Assembly: GCA_015063845.1 (NCBI GenBank)
Contig: SVTJ01000007.1
Location: 21,968 to 85,967, forward strand
Length of the DNA stretch: 64,000 nt
Direction: 5' to 3'
Origin: Oscillospiraceae bacterium
GTDB taxonomy: Bacteria; Bacillota; Clostridia; Oscillospirales; CAG-272
The notes under the pieces are model-generated. The model saw only the letters and a program-made list of their open reading frames with translations. It had not been told where the DNA came from and ran no database searches. The translations under genes were made by a program, and so were the position numbers. How positions within the stretch are numbered: position 1 is the first letter of the stretch; every line of letters starts with the position of its first letter. This document shows positions 5,649-61,010 of the stretch, piece after piece.

Positions 5649-6203
5649 ATGATAGACCTGCTTGACCTTCAAAAGCATTTTATACTTACTCATCTTGGTG
5701 AGGGAGACGTTGCCGTAGACTTCACGATGGGCAACGGTCACGACACCGAATTTCTTTCAAAAACGGTCGGAGAGAGCGGACACGTCTACGCCTTTGATAT
5801 TCAAGAGATGGCTCTTGCCTCGACCGCGAAAAATCTCAAAGAGGCGGGCTGTCCCGAGAACTATACGCTTATTCTCGACTCGCACCACAACGTAAAAAAG
5901 TACGTTGACAGACCTATAAAGGCGGGAATGTTCAATCTCGGTTATCTGCCCGGCAGTGACAAGACGGTCACCACAATGCGCACGACCACGCTCCCCGCCA
6001 TCGAGGCTGCTATATCCCTTATGGATAAGGACGCGATCATTTTGGTGGCGGTATATCCGGGGCACGCTGAGGGAGAGGCTGAGGGAAAGCTCATCTGCGA
6101 ATATCTCTCAACGCTCTCGCGCTACAAGGTGTGCGCAACGAGGATCAACATTCTCAACTCCCCCACTTCCCCGTTTTTTATAATCATCGAAAGCAAGCCG
6201 TAA
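5649..6203 (+). CDS. class I SAM-dependent methyltransferase (YtqB-like putative rRNA methylase family)
   Basis: The GxGxG-like region DFTMGNGHDTEFL and an acidic loop YAFDIQE match the small Rossmann methyltransferase pattern. Confidence 0.65.
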   Translation: MIDLLDLQKHFILTHLGEGDVAVDFTMGNGHDTEFLSKTVGESGHVYAFDIQEMALASTAKNLKEAGCPENYTLILDSHHNVKKYVDRPIKAGMFNLGYLPGSDKTVTTMRTTTLPAIEAAISLMDKDAIILVAVYPGHAEGEAEGKLICEYLSTLSRYKVCATRINILNSPTSPFFIIIESKP

Positions 6204-9840: not shown

Positions 9841-10005
9841 TCAAATTAGGATTTATCGGGGACGCGTTTTTTTGAGGGGAACTTCTTGAAAGAAGTTCCC
9901 CTCAAACTCCCTTCAAGAACTTTAAAACTAAATTATTATTGGTGTAGCCGTAAGAAAAGATATAACTTTATTGTTTTTCTTATAAGGAAAAAACTCGTCG
10001 GACCT
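9841..10005 (+). repeat. copy A of the palindromic intergenic repeat family (X-type half element)
   Basis: Starts GTCAAATTAGGATTTATCGG, carries the conserved hairpin GAGGGGAACTTCTT-GAAA-GAAGTTCCCCTC, and ends AAAACTCGTCGGACC. Confidence 0.8.
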
Positions 10006-10048: not shown

Positions 10049-11140
10049 TATAAGTAAGACATCTGAAATGGCTTTACTCGCGTTTCCGTCTCCGTATGGG
10101 TTCTCTGAACACGACATTCTTTCACGCAGCTCACTGTTATCAAGAATTTCGCAAACTTTTTCAAAGATTTTGTGCCCTTTTGTGCCAACCAGTGCCGATA
10201 TGCCCAACTTGATGCCGTCGCACCGTTCGGTCTCATCTCTCATCACGAGCACGGGAACTCCCAACGCTGCCGCCTCCTCCTGAAGCCCGCCCGAGTCGGT
10301 GAGCACAAGATAGCTTCTCGCGAGAATATTATGACATTCATACACCCCAAGTGGCGAGCAAAGCTTTACTCCATCGCACCTTCCAAGCACCCTCTCAGCT
10401 ACGTCACGCACGCGCGGATTGGGGTGCACGGGATATATGAATAACACGTCGGGGTACTTCTCTACCAAACGAAATACAGCGCGAAGCATATCCTCGAGCG
10501 AGCATATATTCTCCCGTCTGTGAGCCGTAAAGAATATTATTCTTTTTCCTATCGCTCCGTCAAGCAGCGGATGGGCGAAGTGAGGGCTTACGGTGGTACT
10601 AAGCGCGTCAATGACAGTGTTCCCCGTCACGAATATATTCTCCCCGTCTATTCCCTCTCTCAAAAGATTTTGACGCGCGCTCATGGTGGGAGCAAAGTGA
10701 TACCTTGCCGTCAACGCTATGGCGCGCCTATTGAACTCCTCAGGGAACGGGCTGCGAATATTCTTTGTTCTGAGGCCTGCCTCTACGTGCGCTACGGGAA
10801 TATTCATATAAAAGCAAGCAAGCGAAGCGGCAAACGCCGTTGTAGTATCTCCGTGGACAACGACCACGTCGGGCATCTCCCTTGACAGCACTTCCCTTAT
10901 CCGCTCAAGCACCCGTTCTGTCACATCAAAAAGCGTTTGTGAGGTGCTCATCACACCGAGGTCGTAATCCGCGCGCACACCAAAGTCATCAAGCACTCCT
11001 CTGAGCAGCTCCTTATGCTGTGAGCTGATACACACCCTAACCTGCGCCTTTTCCCTTTTCTCAAGCTCCTTTATCAGCGGACAAAGCTTTATCGCCTCAG
11101 GACGCGTTCCAAAAGCGATAAGTATCTTTTTCTTTTCAAT
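10046..11140 (-). CDS. wecB: UDP-N-acetylglucosamine 2-epimerase (non-hydrolysing)
   Basis: [21 protein letters not shown]-terminal region plus the HGDTTTA and DSGGLQEEA motifs. No in-frame ATG/GTG/TTG lies near the conserved N-terminus; the frame overlaps the sigE stop, so the start (about 11140) is uncertain. Confidence 0.8.
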
Positions 11141-11894
11141 AGCTTGCTTTGATCTCGTCTCTGAGCTTTGCGATGATCTTTTTTTCAAGTCTTGATATGT
11201 ATGACTGTGATATTCCAAGTCTATCCGCGACCTCCTTTTGCGTGAGCTCCTTTTGACCGCCAATACCGTATCTCATCTCGATTATCTCACGCTCTCTGTC
11301 CTCAAGTGCGGCGACCGCCCGTCTTACCGCCATTTTTTCTTCCATCTGCTCTATCTCAAAGGATATGCTGACCTCGTCACTTCCGAGGACGTCCGCGAGC
11401 AACAGCTCGTTTCCGTCCCAGTCTATGTTGAGAGGCTCATCTATGGACACCTCGGCACGAGAGCCCGAATGCTTGCGTATATACATCAGTATCTCGTTTT
11501 CTATACAGCGAGAGGCATAAGTGGCGAGCTTTATGTTCTTATCGACCTGAAAGGTATTTATTGCCTTTATAAGCCCTATCGTGCCGATAGAGACGAGGTC
11601 CTCAAGCCCCGCTCCCGTGTTTTCAAATCTTTTGGCTATATAGACCACAAGTCTCAGATTGTGCTCTATAAGCATCTGTCTTGCGCTCTCCTCGCTGCCA
11701 AGACGGGAGAGCACCTCGCTCTCTTCCTCGCGGCTGAGCGGCGGCGGAAGTATGTCAGCGCCGTTGACGTAATATACTCCGTCTCCCTCTCTTTTTCTCT
11801 TTCCAAAGCCCGACCTTATCCGCGCGACACACTTGCGGAAAAGCTGTTTTATTTTGTCACCCATTTTTTCAAGAAGCTCTACTAAACTATTCAT
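11136..11894 (-). CDS. sigE: sporulation sigma factor E precursor (pro-sigma-E)
   Basis: [13 protein letters not shown] pro-sequence junction, sigma-E-specific block [26 protein letters not shown], and [19 protein letters not shown]. It lies immediately downstream of spoIIGA. ATG at 11894 follows a GGAGG RBS. Confidence 0.9.
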
Positions 11895-11909: not shown

Positions 11910-12776
11910 TCATATCAGTAATTCGTTGGGCAAAAGCACCTCACAGCCGTCCGCGAAGCTTTGTGCCTCGCTGAGCGCGATATATGCGTCAACCTCTTTT
12001 TGCGGCACGTCTCCGTCCTCTCCGACGAGTATCTTATCGGGTCGTATAGCCAAAAGGCAGCCTTCTCCCGTCGCCGTTTTGGCGGGTATAAGGCGCACAC
12101 GCCTCGCCATAGCCGCGTCCGTGCTTGCAAGAGGCGCCACGTTCTTTGTACGCGCGGCATTTATCACCTCGTCTCCCACTACCCCTTTAAGCGTCTGCGC
12201 GCTCACAAGCACGCATACGCGACCGCTGATAGGGTCACGCAAAAGGTTACCGCTGTCGCAAAATGCTCTTAGCTGCTTTGCTTTTCCGCCTATCTCAAAC
12301 GCCACGCTTGCATACCTCGCCGACGTTCGCCGTCTGAAAAATTTAGTGCCGACAAGAGCGAATGCCGCGCTTATCAGCGCAAGAAGAGCGAGCACCCAAG
12401 CTGATATGCCGTCGCTCTCGACCGCCTCTATCCCGAGATCTGCCCTATTCAAAAGAGTAAACAGCGCGCTCATAAAGCCACCAAGCGTCATTGACACAGC
12501 AAAATAGACCAGCGTATGTAAGAATACCGAACGCGCAACGCCAAAGGCTATTATGCACATAAGCAGGCATAGAAGCACGTCGAGCATAAACGCAGGAAAG
12601 CCCTCAAACGGCAAGAACAGCGCAACGCAAGCATAAACACCGCCAAGAGCTGCCGCCAGAAGCGTTCGTAGAAGCTTTAATTTTCCACCGAGCAGCTGAG
12701 ACGATAAAAAGAAGCATAGAAAATCCATACTGAAATTTATCATAAAGAACAGATCGACGTATACCGTTTGCCCCAT
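11910..12776 (-). CDS. spoIIGA: sigma-E processing peptidase SpoIIGA
   Basis: Polytopic membrane N-terminus (TVYVDLFFMINFSMDFL...) and a C-terminal aspartic-protease-like domain, directly upstream of sigE. The start is moved to M7, which has an AGAGGG RBS. Confidence 0.8.
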   Translation of the reverse strand: MGQTVYVDLFFMINFSMDFLCFFLSSQLLGGKLKLLRTLLAAALGGVYACVALFLPFEGFPAFMLDVLLCLLMCIIAFGVARSVFLHTLVYFAVSMTLGGFMSALFTLLNRADLGIEAVESDGISAWVLALLALISAAFALVGTKFFRRRTSARYASVAFEIGGKAKQLRAFCDSGNLLRDPISGRVCVLVSAQTLKGVVGDEVINAARTKNVAPLASTDAAMARRVRLIPAKTATGEGCLLAIRPDKILVGEDGDVPQKEVDAYIALSEAQSFADGCEVLLPNELLI

Positions 12777-12805
12777 ATCAACCCTCTTTTCCATTTATTA
12801 CCATT

Positions 12806-12838
12806 ATTATACACCTATAAAAGCGAATATTTTGTCAT
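12806..12838 (-). promoter_or_regulatory. candidate spoIIG-type promoter (-10 TATAAT, -35-like ATGACA, unusual 21-nt spacer)
   Basis: On the minus strand: ATGACA, 21 nt, then TGTATAAT. Long spacers are typical of Spo0A-dependent spoIIG promoters. Confidence 0.45.
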
Positions 12839-12913
12839 AAAAGGATAGAGGAATAAATTTATTTTTATTATTCATACGCCATATTCATCAACAAGGAATA
12901 TTATGCTTGAAGG

Positions 12914-12954
12914 TAAATTAGGATTTGTCGATGGACTCGCATAAATCTAATTTT
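12914..12954. repeat. cargo-less mini copy of the repeat-family termini (two inverted AAATTAG(G)ATTTRTCG arms back to back), each arm containing TGTCGA
   Basis: AAATTAGGATTTGTCGATGGACTCGCATAAATCTAATTT, about 90-130 bp upstream of the spoIIG -35. Confidence 0.6.
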
Positions 12955-13007
12955 CTCTTTATTGCTTGCGGGAGAAAGATGTGGCGGAGCCACCACCTCA
13001 TTATCAT

Positions 13008-13053
13008 TATCAATATCAATATTATTCTCATTATTATTATCATTATCATTATA
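13008..13053. repeat. AT-rich ATT/ATC microsatellite-like low-complexity tract
   Basis: cattatcattatcaatatcaatattattctcattattattatcattatcattat. Confidence 0.7.
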
Positions 13054-13064
13054 GGGTTTTTTCG

Positions 13065-13108
13065 CTTTTTTTGGCAACCGATAGCTTTTTTTGGCAACCG
13101 ATCGGTTT
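13065..13108. repeat. tandem direct repeat 2 x TTTTTTTGGCAACCGAT ending in the 12-bp palindrome AACCGATCGGTT
   Basis: ctttttttggcaaccgat agctttttttggcaaccgatcggtt. Confidence 0.7.
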
Positions 13109-13111
13109 TCA

Positions 13112-13146
13112 CAAAAAAACACAGCTGCGTTTTTACAGCTGTGTTC
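13112..13146 (-). terminator. intrinsic terminator of the PfkB-family kinase gene
   Basis: AACACAGCTG-CGTTTTTA-CAGCTGTGTT followed by a T-run on the minus strand. Confidence 0.7.
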
Positions 13147-13160
13147 TTTGATCATATTCA

Positions 13161-14090
13161 TTATATTTGCGATACGTTTATGAGCTCACCAAGCCTTTGT
13201 ATATCCTCTTTTCTCGGTGGCTTTGTGCCCTCTGTAAGACACGCCGCGCTTCCATAGGCAACGGCTGTGCGAAGCAAATCGCAATTTGCCGCCCCCTCAC
13301 TCATCGCCGCAAGAAAACCCGCTATCGAGCTATCCCCCGCGCCGATGGTGGAAAGTGCCTTTATTTTAGGCGCTTGCGCAAAGTATGCTCCGTCAGACGC
13401 GCAAAGCACCGCTCCGCGCGAGCCGAGGCTGATCATTACGTTTTCTATCCCCTGCTCTCTCAGAGCACGAGCCGCTTTCACAGCGTCCTCAAGCGTATCT
13501 ATCCTCTCATCGACGTATGCCGCCACCTCGTCCTCATTAGGCTTTATCAAAAAAGGTCCTATCAAGAACACGTCCTCTTTCGTAAGCGAACGGCTGTCTA
13601 TCACAAGCTTCGCGCCTTTTTCCTTCAGTTTCAAAAGAAAGCTGACAAGGGCATCTCTGCCGATACCGTCCGGGACACTTCCCGTAAAGGCAAGCACGCA
13701 GTCATTATCTATCATTTTAGAAATAAGCTCATAGACCTCGTCAAGAAGTCCGTCGCTCGCAGCCGCCCCCGCAAAGCTTATGCGTGTTTCCACACCGCTT
13801 TTTGTATGCACGGTGATATTCTCACGCACCCTTCCCTTGACCTCTACCGTCAAAGCATTTATACCGTCAGAGCTAAGAGCATCTTCAAAATCCGCTCTTC
13901 CTTCGCTTCCCACAACGGCGACCGCCGTATTCGGAACGCCCATGGCGCAGAGAGCGCGGGAGACGTTTATTCCCTTTCCGCCCGCATCGCGGGAGAGTAT
14001 GCTCACGATATTCTCGTGACCTGCGACAAAGCTATCCGTATAGCAATGCACGTCTTGCGCCACGTTAAGTGTCAATGTGATTATCTTCAT
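13161..14090 (-). CDS. 1-phosphofructokinase / tagatose-6-phosphate kinase family (PfkB) sugar kinase
   Basis: GGKGINVSRA motif near the N-terminus, a C-terminal GAGDS anion hole, and 309 aa. Confidence 0.85.
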   Translation of the reverse strand: MKIITLTLNVAQDVHCYTDSFVAGHENIVSILSRDAGGKGINVSRALCAMGVPNTAVAVVGSEGRADFEDALSSDGINALTVEVKGRVRENITVHTKSGVETRISFAGAAASDGLLDEVYELISKMIDNDCVLAFTGSVPDGIGRDALVSFLLKLKEKGAKLVIDSRSLTKEDVFLIGPFLIKPNEDEVAAYVDERIDTLEDAVKAARALREQGIENVMISLGSRGAVLCASDGAYFAQAPKIKALSTIGAGDSSIAGFLAAMSEGAANCDLLRTAVAYGSAACLTEGTKPPRKEDIQRLGELINVSQI

Positions 14091-38180: not shown

Positions 38181-38506
38181 GTCAAATTAGGATTTGTCGG
38201 TGTGTTCGCACAGGCTTGCCGACGCTTGCGAGTGTTCCTCACTCTAAGAACTTTAACACAAAGAAATTATTATTTTTTTAATTGGGCTGAAAAACTCATT
38301 GTAGTGCAGAACGTTCAAATACCCATAAAACTCGTCGGTACGTAGGGTCCGACGAGTTTTTACCTCAGAGAAAAACAATAAAGTTATATATTTCCTATGG
38401 CTGTAACAATAACTATTTTGTTTTAAAGTTCTTGAAGGGAGTTTGAGGGAAGCTTCTTTCAAGAAGTTTCCCTCAAAAAAACGCGTCCCCGATAAATCCT
38501 AATTTA
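38181..38506. repeat. copy B of the palindromic intergenic repeat family (full element: Y arm, central bidirectional terminator hairpin, inverted X arm)
   Basis: Termini GTCAAATTAGGATTTGTCGG ... CCGATAAATCCTAATTTA, centre AAAACTCGTCGG-TACGTAGGGT-CCGACGAGTTTTT (38327-38361). Confidence 0.85.
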
Positions 38507-38525: not shown

Positions 38526-38830
38526 TTGACAAATATTTCTTTGTGTGATATAATACTTAATTGTAATAAACAAATGCTTTGACGAAGACAGTAGCGTAGA
38601 TGAGCGTTTTCAGAGAATCGGGGTATGGTGTGAGCCCGATATTCGCCGCTATGTGAATATCACTTCCGAGCTGCGTGGACGAAGCCGTTTTTTGGTGTGT
38701 AGTCTCCGACGGGACCGAGCCGTTATTTTCGGGACGTATGATGTACGTTTTAATGGGTGGTTTGTGAGCTTTCGTCCTATTAGCGGCGGAGCTTTTTTTA
38801 TTTTTAAATATAAACTCTAAAAGGAGAATT
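38526..38830 (+). promoter_or_regulatory. consensus sigma-A promoter plus a T-box-like leader of ileS
   Basis: TTGACA-17-TATAAT (38526-38554), and a roughly 270-nt structured leader with AGAGA and GGGTGG (T-box-like) elements. The canonical T-box and terminator are not cleanly resolved. Confidence 0.45.
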
Positions 38831-38833
38831 AAT

Positions 38834-41800
38834 ATGCTTTACAACAAGGTATCAACCAATCTGAGCTTCGTTGAGCGTGAAAAGAACACTGCAAACTTTT
38901 GGCGCGAGAACGATGTTGTCAGAAAGAATCTTGACAAGGCGGGAGAAACCTACACGTTCTACGACGGTCCTCCTACCGCAAACGGTAAGCCCCATATCGG
39001 TCACTTGCTCACACGTGCGATCAAGGATATGATCCCTCGCTATCAGGTAATGAAAGGCAAGTGTGTCACGCGAAAGGCCGGCTGGGATACTCACGGTCTC
39101 CCCGTTGAGCTTGAGGTCGAGAAGCTTCTCGGTCTTGACGGTAAGGAGCAGATCGAGCAGTACGGTCTTGAGCCGTTTATCGGCAAATGTAAGGAAAGCG
39201 TTTGGAAGTACAAGGGTATGTGGGAGGACTTCTCCGAGACCGTTGCATTCTGGGCGGATATGAAGGATCCTTACGTTACCTACGACAACAACTTCATCGA
39301 GTCCGAGTGGTGGGCTCTCAAGGAGATATACAACAAGGGACTGCTTTATAAGGGCTTCAAGATCGTCCCCTACTGCCCCCGTTGCGGTACTCCCTTGTCC
39401 AGCCACGAGGTAGCTCAGGGATATAAGGACGTCAAGGAAAAATCCGCTATCGCGAAGTTCCGCGTAAAGGGCAAGACAGACGAGTATATCCTCGCTTGGA
39501 CGACCACGCCTTGGACACTTCCCTCAAACGTAGCTCTCTGCGTAAACCCTGTTGAGACCTACGCAAAGATATCTGTCGGCGATGAGAAGTACATTCTCGC
39601 AGAGGCGCTCATTCCCTCTGTTATCTCCGATGAGTATACTGTTCTCGAAACTTACATCGGTAAGGACCTTGAGAGAATGGAATACGAGCCTCTCTTTGAC
39701 TTCGCAAAGCCGCAGAAGAAGGCGTTCTACGTTGTCTGCGACGGCTACGTAACGCTTACGGACGGTACAGGTATAGTTCATATCGCTCCCGCATTCGGTG
39801 AGGACGACTCCCGCGTCGGTCGCGAGTATGACCTTCCCTTCGTTCAGCTCGTCGACTCTCACGGCTGTATGACAAAGGAGACCGATTGGCCCGGTATGTT
39901 CTGCAAGGACGCGGACGCAGAGGTATTCAAGTCTCTTCGTGAAAAAGGCTTGCTCTTCAAGGCTCTTCCCTTTGAACACTCCTATCCCTTCTGCTGGAGA
40001 TGCGACACTCCCCTTATCTACTACGCTCGCGAGAGCTGGTTCATACGTATGACCGCAGTTCGCGACAGACTTGTTGCGAACAACAACACTATCAATTGGA
40101 TACCCGAGAGCATTGGTAAGGGACGCTTCGGCGACTGGATATGCAACGTTCAGGACTGGGGTATCAGCCGTAACCGTTATTGGGGTACTCCCCTTAACAT
40201 CTGGCAGTGTGAGTGCGGAGAGATGCACTCCGTAGGCTCTATCGCAGAGCTTCGCGAGCTTTCCGACAACTGCCCTGAGAACATTGAGCTTCACAGACCT
40301 TTCGTTGATAACGTAACCTTCAAGTGTAAGAAGTGCGGCGGCGAGATGCGCCGTGTTCCCGAGGTTATCGACTGCTGGTTCGACTCGGGTGCTATGCCCT
40401 TCGCTCAGTGGCACTATCCTTTTGAGAACAAGGATATATTCGAGAAGAACTTCCCTGCTGACTTTATCAGTGAGGCAGTTGACCAGACCAGAGGTTGGTT
40501 CTATTCGCTTCTCGCTATCTCCACGCTTCTCTTTGACAAAGCTCCCTACAAGAACGTAATAGTTCTCGGTCTTGTTCAGGACGAGAACGGACAGAAGATG
40601 TCCAAGTCCAAGGGCAACGCTGTAGACCCCTTTGAGGCTCTCGCTAAGTACGGCGCAGATGCTCTCCGTTGGTACTTCTATTCCAACAGCGCTCCTTGGC
40701 TGCCCAGCCGTTTCTACGGCGACGCTGTCGTTGACTGTCAGAGAAAGTTCCTCGGAACGCTCTGGAACACATATGCGTTCTTCGTTCTTTATGCAAACAT
40801 CGACGATTTCGATGCTACAAAGTACACGCTCGACAAGGAAAAGCTCTCCGTTATGGACAAGTGGTTGCTCTCTCGCCTTAACACGGTAGTCCGCGAGTGC
40901 GACCAGCTTTACAGCGAGATGAAGATAGTTGAGACCACCAAAGTACTTGAGAAGTTTGTTGACGAGCTCTCCAACTGGTACGTTCGTCGTTCACGTGAGC
41001 GTTTCTGGGGCAAGGATATGACCGAGGACAAGATAAACGCTTATATGACGCTTTACACCGTTCTCGTTACTATCGCAAAGGTCTCTGCTCCTATGATACC
41101 CTTTATGTCCGAGGATATCTACCGCAATCTCGTTTGCTCCATTGACAAGGATGCGCCCATAAGCGTTCACCTCTCCGACTTCCCCGTATGTGACGAGTCT
41201 TACATCGACGCGGAGCTTGAGGAGATGATGAAGGACGTGCTTGATATCGTCGTTCTCGGACGCGCAGGCAGAAACGCAGCTGCTATCAAGAACCGTCAGC
41301 CCATAGGCAAGATGTACGTCAAGGCAGACTTCACCATGTCGGAGCTTTACACCGATATCATTGAGGACGAGCTTAACGTAAAGTCCGTTGAATTCACAGA
41401 CAACGTAAGCGCATTCTCAAGCTACAGCTTCAAGCCTCAGATGAGAACTGTTGGACCGAAGTACGGCAAGTATCTCGGCAAGATCAAGGAGCTTCTCGCC
41501 GCTGTTGACGGCAACGCCGCTATGGCAGAGCTTGAGACAAACGGAGTGCTCTCACTCGATCTTGGAGACGGAACAGTCGCAAAGCTTGAGCGTGACGATC
41601 TTCTTATCGACGTCAAGCAGATCGAAGGCTACCTCTCTACAAGTGATTACGGTGTGACCGTGGTGCTTGACACCAACCTCACCGAAGAGCTTATCGAAGA
41701 GGGTATCGTCCGTGAGCTTGTAAGTAAGATACAGAATATGCGTAAGGATAGCGGATTTGAGGTCATGGACCACATCGTTATCACCATCGGCGGCAGCGAA

Positions 41801-41938
41801 CGCGTAAGCGATATTCTCCGCCGCAACGCAGAGGAGATCTGCACACAGACTCTTGCAGACAACGTCGTATATGCCGACGGTGGCAAGGAATGGAACATAA
41901 ACGGCGAGACCGTTTCCCTTTCCGTTGCAAAGGTTTAA
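38834..41938 (+). CDS. ileS: isoleucine--tRNA ligase, type 2 (1034 aa, no C-terminal zinc finger)
   Basis: HIGH (GKPHIGHLLT), KMSKS (KMSKSKGN), editing-domain blocks, and a long type-2 C-terminal extension. Confidence 0.95.
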   Translation: MLYNKVSTNLSFVEREKNTANFWRENDVVRKNLDKAGETYTFYDGPPTANGKPHIGHLLTRAIKDMIPRYQVMKGKCVTRKAGWDTHGLPVELEVEKLLGLDGKEQIEQYGLEPFIGKCKESVWKYKGMWEDFSETVAFWADMKDPYVTYDNNFIESEWWALKEIYNKGLLYKGFKIVPYCPRCGTPLSSHEVAQGYKDVKEKSAIAKFRVKGKTDEYILAWTTTPWTLPSNVALCVNPVETYAKISVGDEKYILAEALIPSVISDEYTVLETYIGKDLERMEYEPLFDFAKPQKKAFYVVCDGYVTLTDGTGIVHIAPAFGEDDSRVGREYDLPFVQLVDSHGCMTKETDWPGMFCKDADAEVFKSLREKGLLFKALPFEHSYPFCWRCDTPLIYYARESWFIRMTAVRDRLVANNNTINWIPESIGKGRFGDWICNVQDWGISRNRYWGTPLNIWQCECGEMHSVGSIAELRELSDNCPENIELHRPFVDNVTFKCKKCGGEMRRVPEVIDCWFDSGAMPFAQWHYPFENKDIFEKNFPADFISEAVDQTRGWFYSLLAISTLLFDKAPYKNVIVLGLVQDENGQKMSKSKGNAVDPFEALAKYGADALRWYFYSNSAPWLPSRFYGDAVVDCQRKFLGTLWNTYAFFVLYANIDDFDATKYTLDKEKLSVMDKWLLSRLNTVVRECDQLYSEMKIVETTKVLEKFVDELSNWYVRRSRERFWGKDMTEDKINAYMTLYTVLVTIAKVSAPMIPFMSEDIYRNLVCSIDKDAPISVHLSDFPVCDESYIDAELEEMMKDVLDIVVLGRAGRNAAAIKNRQPIGKMYVKADFTMSELYTDIIEDELNVKSVEFTDNVSAFSSYSFKPQMRTVGPKYGKYLGKIKELLAAVDGNAAMAELETNGVLSLDLGDGTVAKLERDDLLIDVKQIEGYLSTSDYGVTVVLDTNLTEELIEEGIVRELVSKIQNMRKDSGFEVMDHIVITIGGSERVSDILRRNAEEICTQTLADNVVYADGGKEWNINGETVSLSVAKV

Positions 41939-41950
41939 GAATACGTTTTT

Positions 41951-41988
41951 TAGGGGAACTTCTTCCAAGAAGTTCCCCTAAATTTTTG
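41951..41988 (+). terminator. intrinsic terminator of ileS, using the same hairpin sequence found inside the repeat family
   Basis: TAGGGGAACTTCTT-CC-AAGAAGTTCCCCTA followed by AATTTTTG. Confidence 0.8.
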
Positions 41989-41996
41989 TTTGTGAG

Positions 41997-42326
41997 GTAA
42001 ATTAGGATTTATCGGGGACGCGTTTTTTTGAGGGACGCGTTTTTTTTGAGGGAAACTTCTTGAAAGAAGTTTCCCTCAAACTCCCTTCAAGAACTTTAAA
42101 ACAAAATAGTTATTGTTACAGCCATAGGAAATATATAACTTTATTGTTTTTCTCTGAGGTAAAAACTCGTCGGACCCTACGTACCGACGAGTTTTATGGG
42201 TATTTGAACGTTCTGCACTACAATGAGTTTTTCAGCCCAATTAAAAAAACAATAATTTCTTTGTGTTAAAGTTCTTAGAGGGGAATACTCGCAAGCCTGT
42301 GCGAACTCCCCGATAAATCCTAATTT
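41997..42326. repeat. copy C of the palindromic repeat family (full element, inverted relative to copy B; internal 17-bp tandem duplication GACGCGTTTTTTTGAGG)
   Basis: Termini GGTAAATTAGGATTTATCGGGG ... CCCCGATAAATCCTAATTTA, central hairpin at 42162-42195. Confidence 0.85.
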
Positions 42327-42347: not shown

Positions 42348-42376
42348 TTGACAAAGGTAGGAAAATAGTGTATAAT
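42348..42376 (+). promoter_or_regulatory. feo upstream promoter P1 (TTGACA-17-TATAAT)
   Basis: Exact consensus hexamers. Confidence 0.6.
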
Positions 42377-42382
42377 AATTAC

Positions 42383-56405: not shown

Positions 56406-56819
56406 AGGGGAAAACTTCTTGGAAGAAGTTTTCCCCACTCCTGTTGCGTTTAACGGTTCTGTCTGCGCTCGCGTAGCGAGCTTGACAATCACCGAACGCC
56501 GCCACGCCTTATCGCTCGCTTTGTCTGCCACAGGCAGCGCTCGCAAACGTCCCCCCTTTCAAGAACTTTAAAACAAATTGTTTGTTGGTGTAGCCATAAA
56601 AAACATATAACTTTTTGTTTTTCTTTAATGTAAAAACACGTCGATAATCTATTGCCCGACGTGTTTTATGGGTATTTGCGCTTTGTGCGCTGTAACAAGT
56701 TTTTTAGCCCAACTAAAAAAGTAATAAATTATTTGTGTTAAAGTTCTTTCGGGAGTTTGAGGGAGCTTTCTTTCAAGAAAGCTCCCTCAAAAAACGCGTC
56801 CCATATAAATTCTAATTTG
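56406..56819. repeat. copy D of the palindromic repeat family (mosaic, with a roughly 120-bp divergent insertion)
   Basis: Begins with the hairpin GAGGGGAAAACTTCTT-GG-AAGAAGTTTTCCCC, has the central hairpin AAAAACACGTCG...CGACGTGTTTT (56632-56667), and ends CCCATATAAATTCTAATTTGTC. Confidence 0.75.
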
Positions 56820-60912: not shown

Positions 60913-60996
60913 GACAAATTAGGATTTACCCGCGTGTTCGCACAGTACTCAGTTTTAAAGTTTTGATAAAACTTTTAAGAGGGGGAATGTGCGAAC
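60913..60996. repeat. copy E of the repeat family (short: one terminus plus the GTGTTCGCACAG...CTGTGCGAACA hairpin)
   Basis: GACAAATTAGGATTTACCCGCGTGTTCGCACAG...AATGTGCGAACAT. Confidence 0.65.
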
Positions 60997-61010
60997 ATAC
61001 ATGTAAAATC

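Follow-up and report, generated by a model that had tools for sequence, protein, structure and literature searches.

In the window analysed here, a 64,000-nt stretch of contig SVTJ01000007.1 from an Oscillospiraceae bacterium, the intergenic region upstream of the sporulation operon spoIIGA-sigE appears to hold two unrelated features, a spoIIG promoter of the Spo0A-activated type and the decayed remnant of a dispersed repeat, the latter likely a neutral passenger. We give this reading a probability of about 0.75. The promoter is recognized by a -10 hexamer and a -35-like hexamer set 21 nt apart on the minus strand, and the remnant is a palindrome built from the ends of a repeat family resembling miniature inverted-repeat transposable elements (MITEs). 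A first-pass annotation of the window had noticed both, and had proposed either that the repeat terminus doubles as, or evolved from, a binding site of the Spo0A type, or that a minimal element was inserted into a developmental promoter.

The positions of the -10 TATAAT and of ATGACA upstream of the minus-strand spoIIGA, together with their spacing, were exactly as the first-pass annotation had given them. These elements lie 30-62 nt upstream of the spoIIGA ATG at 12776. A promoter scan found no -35 hexamer 16-18 nt from this -10, and the hexamer at 17 nt is CAAAAT, which matches the -35 sequence at 1/6 positions. GACA-N21-TATAAT has a single occurrence in the window, both strands counted, and the TGACAAAATATTCGC block, which includes the -35-like hexamer, has only chance-level matches with three mismatches elsewhere in the window. 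On the opposite strand, ATGACA reads TGTCAT(A), a weak and conserved resemblance (5/7) to the 0A box TGTCGAA, in which G5 is lost. We found no tandem second weak 0A box beside the -35-like element.

The spoIIGA loci of nine other species (L001, L011, L002, L012, L013 and L003-L006) were collected by a genome scan, a protein search that gave 628 homologues, and contig look-ups; they are metagenome-assembled genomes (MAGs) of uncultured Clostridia or Eubacteriales, with 46-83% SpoIIGA identity. We found that xxGACA-N21-TATAAT is present upstream of spoIIGA in the window and in all nine relatives (10/10 species), as is the block TGACAAA(A/T)TATT. The consensus anchored on the -10 hexamer is AAAata..TTta.Tc......Cct.TT.TGACAAAaTATTcgc.......GgtGTATAAT. 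Counted from the 3' end of the -10 hexamer, the majority base accounts on average for a fraction of 0.81 over the first 40 nt upstream and of 0.72 over the next 20 nt (-60 to -40), falling to 0.48-0.52 beyond that. Sequence, spacing and conservation in 10 species are thus matters of direct observation, and, with no normally spaced -35, they favour the long-spacer promoter that the first-pass annotation had proposed.

Promoters of this type are known from Bacillus. In B. subtilis, the spoIIG promoter is sigma-A dependent, has a 22-nt spacer and is activated by phosphorylated Spo0A (Spo0A~P) through weak 0A boxes, as was reportedly worked out in studies dating from 1993 to 2007; the spoIIE promoter, reportedly described in 1992, is another Spo0A-activated sigma-A promoter, with a spacing of 21 bp. 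We read the spoIIG regions of three Bacillus-group genomes, namely B. halotolerans (whose SigE is 99% identical to what we take to be the B. subtilis SigE sequence), a member of the B. cereus group and Anoxybacillus. TTGACA-22-TATACT stands upstream of spoIIGA in all three, and its TTGACA reads TGTCAA on the opposite strand, where TGTCAAT also matches the 0A box at 5/7. A reverse-oriented 0A box is found at -91/-92 in B. halotolerans (TGTCGAG) and B. cereus (TGTCGGT), and the upstream box of Anoxybacillus, ATGACAAAAT, is the same decamer as the -35-like element of the window's clade. In the B. cereus-group region (L113, 380-460), a 16-17-nt inverted repeat, ATCTGTCGGTAAAAAAT ... ATTTTTTACCGACAGAT, puts TGTCGGT boxes at about -144 and -91 and forms a natural palindromic 0A-like pair upstream of Bacillus spoIIG.

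Like the Bacillus spoIIG promoters, the window's promoter lies directly upstream of spoIIGA-sigE and has a good -10 hexamer, no normally spaced -35, and a -35-like xTGACA at 21-22 nt that may double as a weak 0A box, TGTCAxx. In contrast to them, the window's clade has a spacer of 21 nt instead of 22 and a -10 of TATAAT instead of TATACT, and has neither the tandem second weak box 10 bp upstream nor the conserved box near -90; in place of the Bacillus boxes, it shows AAATATTCGC in the spacer, an A/T block at -50 to -65 and the recurrent TATTCC motif. The distance of 21 nt between the -10 and the -35-like hexamer is that of B. subtilis spoIIE, a likeness of spacing, and spoIIE drives a different gene. 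The upstream region of C. difficile spoIIGA is likewise clostridial and has no perfect 0A box; the DNA-binding domain of C. difficile Spo0A binds this DNA specifically but with low affinity, above 200 nM (PMC3485338).

By analogy with these systems, the promoter fits an ordinary Spo0A-dependent, sigma-A-type long-spacer spoIIG promoter, for which we infer the activator, the contacts and the start site as follows. Sigma-A polymerase would meet a perfect -10 TATAAT, no -35 at 17 ± 1 nt and a -35-like ATGACA displaced to 21 nt, and the displaced GACA element, whose bottom strand reads TGTCATA, would serve as a weak 0A box, as in B. subtilis spoIIG and spoIIE. Spo0A~P would bind this box, which overlaps the -35-like element (TTTTGTCATAA, bottom strand), and would thereby let the polymerase open the promoter at TATAAT. 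Transcription into spoIIGA-sigE would then start near 12799, which would give a leader of about 23 nt with a ribosome-binding site. The start codon of spoIIGA is ATG 12776 rather than the first in-frame ATG at 12794, which would lie only a few bases from any transcript start driven by the -10 at 12811..12806. A GAGGG ribosome-binding site at 12786..12782 serves ATG 12776, and the resulting 288-aa SpoIIGA product is the choice of the gene callers in four identical contigs.

The (A)TATTCC motif, or GGAATAT on the other strand, recurs upstream of spoIIG (window 12892-12905 and 12845-12856). Judged by eye and without an enrichment statistic, it is clear in L001, L011, L002, L004 and L005 and appears as GGAATATT in L003; its place in L012 and L013 is taken by GAGAATATTCGA. 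The motif may be bound by some further regulator.

The second feature, on the plus strand, reads AAATTAGGATTTGTCGA / TGGAC / TCGCATAAATCTAATTT. Its left arm matches the terminus of the repeat family at 16/17 positions, and 12915-12941 aligns to element positions 1-27 at 85%, with roughly the last 12 nt corresponding to the opposite end. It is therefore an internally deleted copy of a lineage-specific repeat of about 322 bp, in which the interior has been lost and all that remains is about 27 nt from one end and about 12 nt from the other. The cargo-less palindrome of the first-pass annotation thus does consist of family termini without an interior, but it is 39 bp long, not 40. Its right arm had been given as TCGACAAATCCTAATTT; the actual TCGCATAAATCTAATTT differs by an inserted C, a deleted C and one substitution. 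Nor is TGTCGA paired, as had been claimed: only one copy is present (12926-12931, plus strand), and the other arm has TATGCGA on the opposite strand. The distance of about 90-130 bp from the promoter also needed revision, since the remnant begins 103 nt from the 5' end of the -10 hexamer and spans 104-142 nt.

Conservation around the remnant places it outside the promoter. In comparisons of the window with L001 and L011, identity was 81-83% over the 138 nt that separate the proximal end of the element from the ATG, close to the 82% of the coding sequence, whereas it was 55-58% over the 199 nt outward from the element. Conservation drops sharply at the element, which abuts the conserved block and lies outside it. 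Of the earlier proposals, a minimal element near a developmental promoter fits best, with the correction that the promoter itself was not entered. Six of the nine relatives (L012, L013 and L003-L006) have no trace of the element and keep the core promoter. The first-pass annotation had named absence of the palindrome from relatives with unchanged spoIIG regulation as evidence against its proposal, and at the level of sequence this is what we found. L012 (74% SpoIIGA identity) has the same layout of pfkB, terminator and promoter without the element; in L013 (68%), a terminator leads to the promoter without the element, on a short contig in which the upstream gene was not identified.

The other three relatives carry different pieces of the family in this spacer. 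In L001 this is a family terminus, AAATTTAGGATTTGTCGGTGTG (2757-2777), with about 100 bp of a different interior after it; in L011, a piece lacking termini that shares 75% identity with element positions 212-304; and in L002, a related element at 2587-2811, about 225 bp long. Together with the window's remnant, these could reflect either one old insertion followed by decay or repeated insertions, and the subterminal sequence suggests that the elements of the window and L001 are in opposite orientation. An exact SpoIIGA look-up returned four contigs of the same strain, in which the whole spacer, with the 39-bp palindrome, is identical to the window; these are uninformative on presence or absence of the element. 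Taken together, the remnant is most likely a neutral passenger, a transposon scar.

The family is well represented in the window. A pattern search with the terminus AAATTAGGATTTGTCGA, allowing up to 3 mismatches, gave 7 matches against 0.34 expected. Two full copies, 38184-38505 (322 bp) and 41999-42326 (328 bp), share 93% identity; 9843-10004, 56555-56818 and the stretch from 63792 to the window end are partial or diverged copies, and 60916-61010 is a family member of about 95 bp. AAATTAGGATTTRTCGG stands at both ends of the two full copies and also at 9843, 63792 and 60916, and terminal inverted repeats of at least 17 nt are common to the dispersed copies. A full copy is non-coding and forms a long nested hairpin (DNA fold of -60.3 kcal/mol, z = -8.8). 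When the element is read as AATTAGG...CCTAATT, its flanks are TA...TA in 41999-42326 and CA...TA in 38184-38505, which leaves the target-site duplication ambiguous. A perfect TTGACA-17-TATAAT promoter lies 21-22 bp downstream of the end of each full copy (38528-38556 and 42349-42377), and the family seems typically to insert beside promoters.

The Correia elements of Neisseria and the pneumococcal RUP and BOX elements are examples of bacterial MITEs, which are short, multicopy and strongly self-complementary, lie between genes, are non-coding and end in inverted repeats; they often adjoin promoters and terminators and are prone to internal deletion. The present family resembles them in these structural traits, but Rfam and plasmid searches showed no sequence similarity to any described family, and no cognate transposase was found. 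Nothing in or near the region reached the gathering threshold in Rfam, where the only matches at E <= 1 were far-sub-threshold small RNAs, and blastn of a full copy against plasmids gave no match. Among viral contigs, 25 matches to the terminus pattern were all coding-sequence coincidences, none of which continues as a repeat, and 71 matches among metagenome contigs were nearly all N-termini of Rossmann-fold proteins (MKLGFIGAG...). Only the metagenome contig JAEEGL015247648.1 (L109, about 1681-2116) carried a related element, which is about 436 bp long, has a higher GC content and ends in AAATTAGGATTTGTCGGGGAGAACCC / AAATTGGGATTTCATGGGGGAACCC; this terminus class is thus not confined to the window's clade. 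Apart from this single relative, known members of the family come only from the same clade of uncultured Clostridia.

Further observations concern the surroundings of individual copies. Between the two full copies, which are inverted relative to each other, lies just one housekeeping gene, ileS (38834-41938), which is preceded by a leader of about 280 nt (38557-38833) ending in a terminator-like hairpin (about 38770-38800); the leader looks like a T-box or attenuator, with no Rfam match at the gathering threshold. The terminator hairpin of ileS at 41943-41986 (GGGGAACTTCTT..AAGAAGTTCCCC) is nearly the same as a hairpin module inside the repeat family, and the repeat may have captured or spread a terminator. 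Just downstream of wecB, a family terminus or copy occurs in three species (window 9843-10004, L001 5762-5776 and L012 5720-5749), in L012 overlapping the stop codon. Since it is common to three species, this insertion appears to be older than the one upstream of spoIIG.

We then considered whether the 0A-like heptamer in the remnant exceeds chance. The 6/7 match of TGTCGA to TGTCGAA noted in the first-pass annotation holds for the one heptamer present, TGTCGAT, which reads TCGACA on the sense strand and has the orientation of the Bacillus upstream box. In the 366-bp intergenic region, it is the only match to TGTCGAA at 6/7 or better on either strand. The expected number is 1.17 from the window-wide density and 0.97 from shuffles of the spacer, 62% of which contain at least one, and the number of 0A-like boxes upstream of spoIIG is at chance level. 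Perfect TGTCGAA occurs 8 times in the window against 10.2 expected, with none near spoIIG, and two weaker 5/7 boxes of the intergenic region lie outside the element. No 0A box at a conserved position near -90 was found in the clade; the window's only box is at -131, inside the remnant. Among the 10 termini tabulated in the window, all copies but the spoIIG one read TCGG, and the single TGTCGA would be the family's TGTCGG with one private G-to-A change, rather than a selected Spo0A site. The base matching G2 of the 0A box is A in 5/10 termini, and 3/10 are of a G type reading TTTGTCGG. The private A, the A at G2 in half of the termini and the chance-level count speak against the idea that the terminus doubles as, or derives from, a site of the Spo0A type.

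Several points nevertheless weigh against the reading of two unrelated features. No 0A box with at most one mismatch is conserved anywhere upstream of spoIIGA in the clade, and the assignment to Spo0A therefore depends on the architecture and the 5/7 box; another regulator could account for the TATTCC motif and for the conservation of AATATT in the 5' half of the spacer. As regards the remnant, TGTCGAT shares the orientation of the Bacillus upstream box and keeps the contacted bases G2, C4 and G5, and the B. cereus-group box at -91, TGTCGGT, is identical to the family terminus, so that some Spo0A affinity of the terminus is possible by analogy. In addition, MITE is a structural label only, as no transposase partner with the same termini was found in the limited search space of the window, viral contigs, metagenome contigs and plasmids.

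One alternative reading is that the remnant's proximal arm (TCGACAAAT, sense strand) was co-opted as an upstream, higher-affinity Spo0A site, the counterpart of the Bacillus box near -90. Its TGTCGAT (6/7) has the orientation of the -91/-92 box and leaves intact the G2, C4 and G5 that Spo0A contacts in the 0A box (PMC3485338), and ATTTGTCGATGGA matches ATTTGTCGAGGGA of B. halotolerans at 12/13 positions. Moreover, core-intact 0A-like boxes at -131 (window), -208 (L001) and -182 (L002) all fall in MITE termini, and B. cereus uses the family-terminus heptamer TGTCGGT at -91. However, one such box is expected by chance, and the centre of the window's box, near -130, is displaced upstream from the Bacillus position by about 39 bp, or 3.7 helical turns. 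Its position is not conserved, the L001 box being in the opposite orientation at -208 and L011 and L005 having none, and the conserved block ends before the element. Even the three Bacillus-group genomes show no conservation among themselves in the sequence flanking the Bacillus box, which makes the 12/13 match largely coincidence. We consider co-option unlikely, and equally doubtful its corollary that the private G-to-A change, which improves the match, was selected. It is also improbable that co-option of this terminus went along with low-affinity Spo0A boxes scattered near promoters by the G-type termini TTTGTCGG(T), which share TGTCGGT with the B. cereus-group -91 box. The broader proposal that the family terminus itself is, or derives from, a Spo0A site, and that the repeats spread 0A boxes through the genome, we regard as highly improbable. 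The G-type termini do contain the three contacted bases, but half of all termini have A at G2, a change that lowered affinity about 10-fold in C. difficile electrophoretic mobility shift assays (PMC3485338), and box positions 6-7 are GG or GT, not AA, in all copies but one. The copies adjoin housekeeping genes (ileS, glmM/wecB and the feoB region) and not sporulation genes, and a 5/7 resemblance within a terminus of 17-30 nt is statistically unremarkable. No link between MITEs and Spo0A appeared among the top full-text literature matches.

Two further alternatives were considered. A near-consensus promoter, TTGCCA-18-TATAAT (13077..13048), lies about 240 bp upstream of the conserved promoter on the same strand and points toward spoIIGA; if active, it would cause Spo0A-independent read-through unless terminated. 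With an 11/12 match to the consensus, the best of the region, it might itself be the real spoIIG promoter, a conventional sigma-A site beside which the long-spacer arrangement is incidental. Yet it has not been kept even in L001, the closest relative, and sits in a tandem duplication specific to the window, whereas the proximal arrangement is present in 10/10 species, with conservation of the proximal 138 nt equal to that of coding sequence; there is very little to recommend this alternative. The palindrome might instead act as the operator of a dimeric regulator, or as a hairpin that terminates or insulates against transcription running in from pfkB or from 13077..13048; insulation from the latter could be useful. 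The palindrome does fold (z = -2.05), but the stem is A/T-rich, imperfect and weak (-6 kcal/mol), the palindrome is not conserved in relatives, and its arms are explained by descent from repeat termini, which makes such a role most improbable. A terminator in particular was rejected, given the weak stem and no T run after the palindrome on the sense strand; the terminator scan did not report it. The reading that we retain is that of a Spo0A-type spoIIG promoter with an unrelated repeat remnant beside it.

Coordinates of the promoter, the remnant and the surrounding features in the window.
Feature	Position	Strand	Basis or remark
-10 hexamer TATAAT	12811..12806	minus	direct reading; invariant in 10 species
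-35-like hexamer ATGACA	12838..12833	minus	direct reading
Spacer, exactly 21 nt, AAATATTCGCTTTTATAGGTG	12812..12832	minus	5' half AAATATTCGC conserved, 3' half variable
Conserved block TGACAAAATATTCGC, including the -35-like hexamer	12837..12823	minus	multi-species alignment
Conserved A/T-rich block AAAATAAATTTATTC upstream of the -35-like element	12851..12865	minus	upstream limit of the 10-species footprint; consensus AAAata..TTta.Tc
Predicted transcription start, about 12799	12797..12801	minus	from the -10 position (6-8 nt downstream)
(A)TATTCC-type motif copy CATAATATTCCTTG	12892..12905	minus	by eye in the anchored alignment
Internally deleted remnant of MITE-like repeat, 39 bp	12915..12953		left arm 12915-12931, centre TGGAC, degenerate right arm 12937-12953
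TGTCGAT, only 6/7 0A-box-like heptamer of the intergenic region	12926..12932	plus	about -127 to -133
spoIIGA coding sequence (288 aa)	11910..12776	minus	TIGR02854 SpoIIGA, E = 3e-36
sigE (pro-sigma-E), second gene of the operon	11136..11894	minus	NF006158 SigE, 344.5 bits, above cut-off
pfkB (1-phosphofructokinase), upstream gene	13161-14090	minus	same profile annotation as spoIIGA and sigE
pfkB terminator hairpin	13114..13149	minus	inverted repeat, 14-nt arms, 93% complementary, then T run

The coordinates of sigE agree with a 252-aa gene call in L007. The spacer between pfkB and spoIIGA is 384 bp on the minus strand, and the pfkB terminator hairpin (13149..13114) is the distal limit of the intergenic region. 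Read from distal to proximal on the sense strand, this hairpin is followed by a tandem pair of 20-bp repeats and an A/T-rich tract, and then by a short GC hairpin, the palindrome and the sequence TTTTATGACAAAATATTCGCTTTTATAGGTGTATAATAATGGTAATAAATGGAAAAGAGGGTTGATATG. The tandem direct repeat at 13064-13103 (GCTTTTTTTGGCAACCGATA / ...GATC) has a single related copy at the same place in L001, which also has two copies of a similar motif, GGCAAAAGAAAACGAAAC, downstream of wecB (5804-5868); these hint at a second small repeat family. The A/T-rich tract at 13000-13059 has a 12-nt periodicity (ATAATGATAATG...) and is specific to the window, being absent from L001. Together with the terminator, it gives rise to a spurious low-complexity open reading frame of 86 aa (12901-13161, minus strand), which is annotated by gene callers in L007. 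We rejected it as a gene, as it has no Pfam match and an ND-rich, low-complexity middle, crosses the pfkB terminator and is not kept in L001.

Judged from sequence, the promoter would be a further example of a known long-spacer type and the palindrome an ordinary transposon scar. An abundant MITE-like repeat, which may have landed there more than once, occupies the spacer beside a developmental promoter and leaves its core untouched. If true, the use of repeat termini as Spo0A boxes would link a mobile repeat to the sporulation regulon; only such binding would surprise specialists, and the evidence does not support it. The long-spacer spoIIG design known from work on Bacillus is also present in a clade of uncultured gut Clostridia, whose closest named relatives are Eubacteriales, Clostridia and Ruminococcaceae MAGs. 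In that clade the spacing has stayed at exactly 21 nt despite deep divergence, which fits an ancient activator-dependent mechanism, and the promoter footprint (12800-12866) is usable for annotating sporulation control in these organisms.

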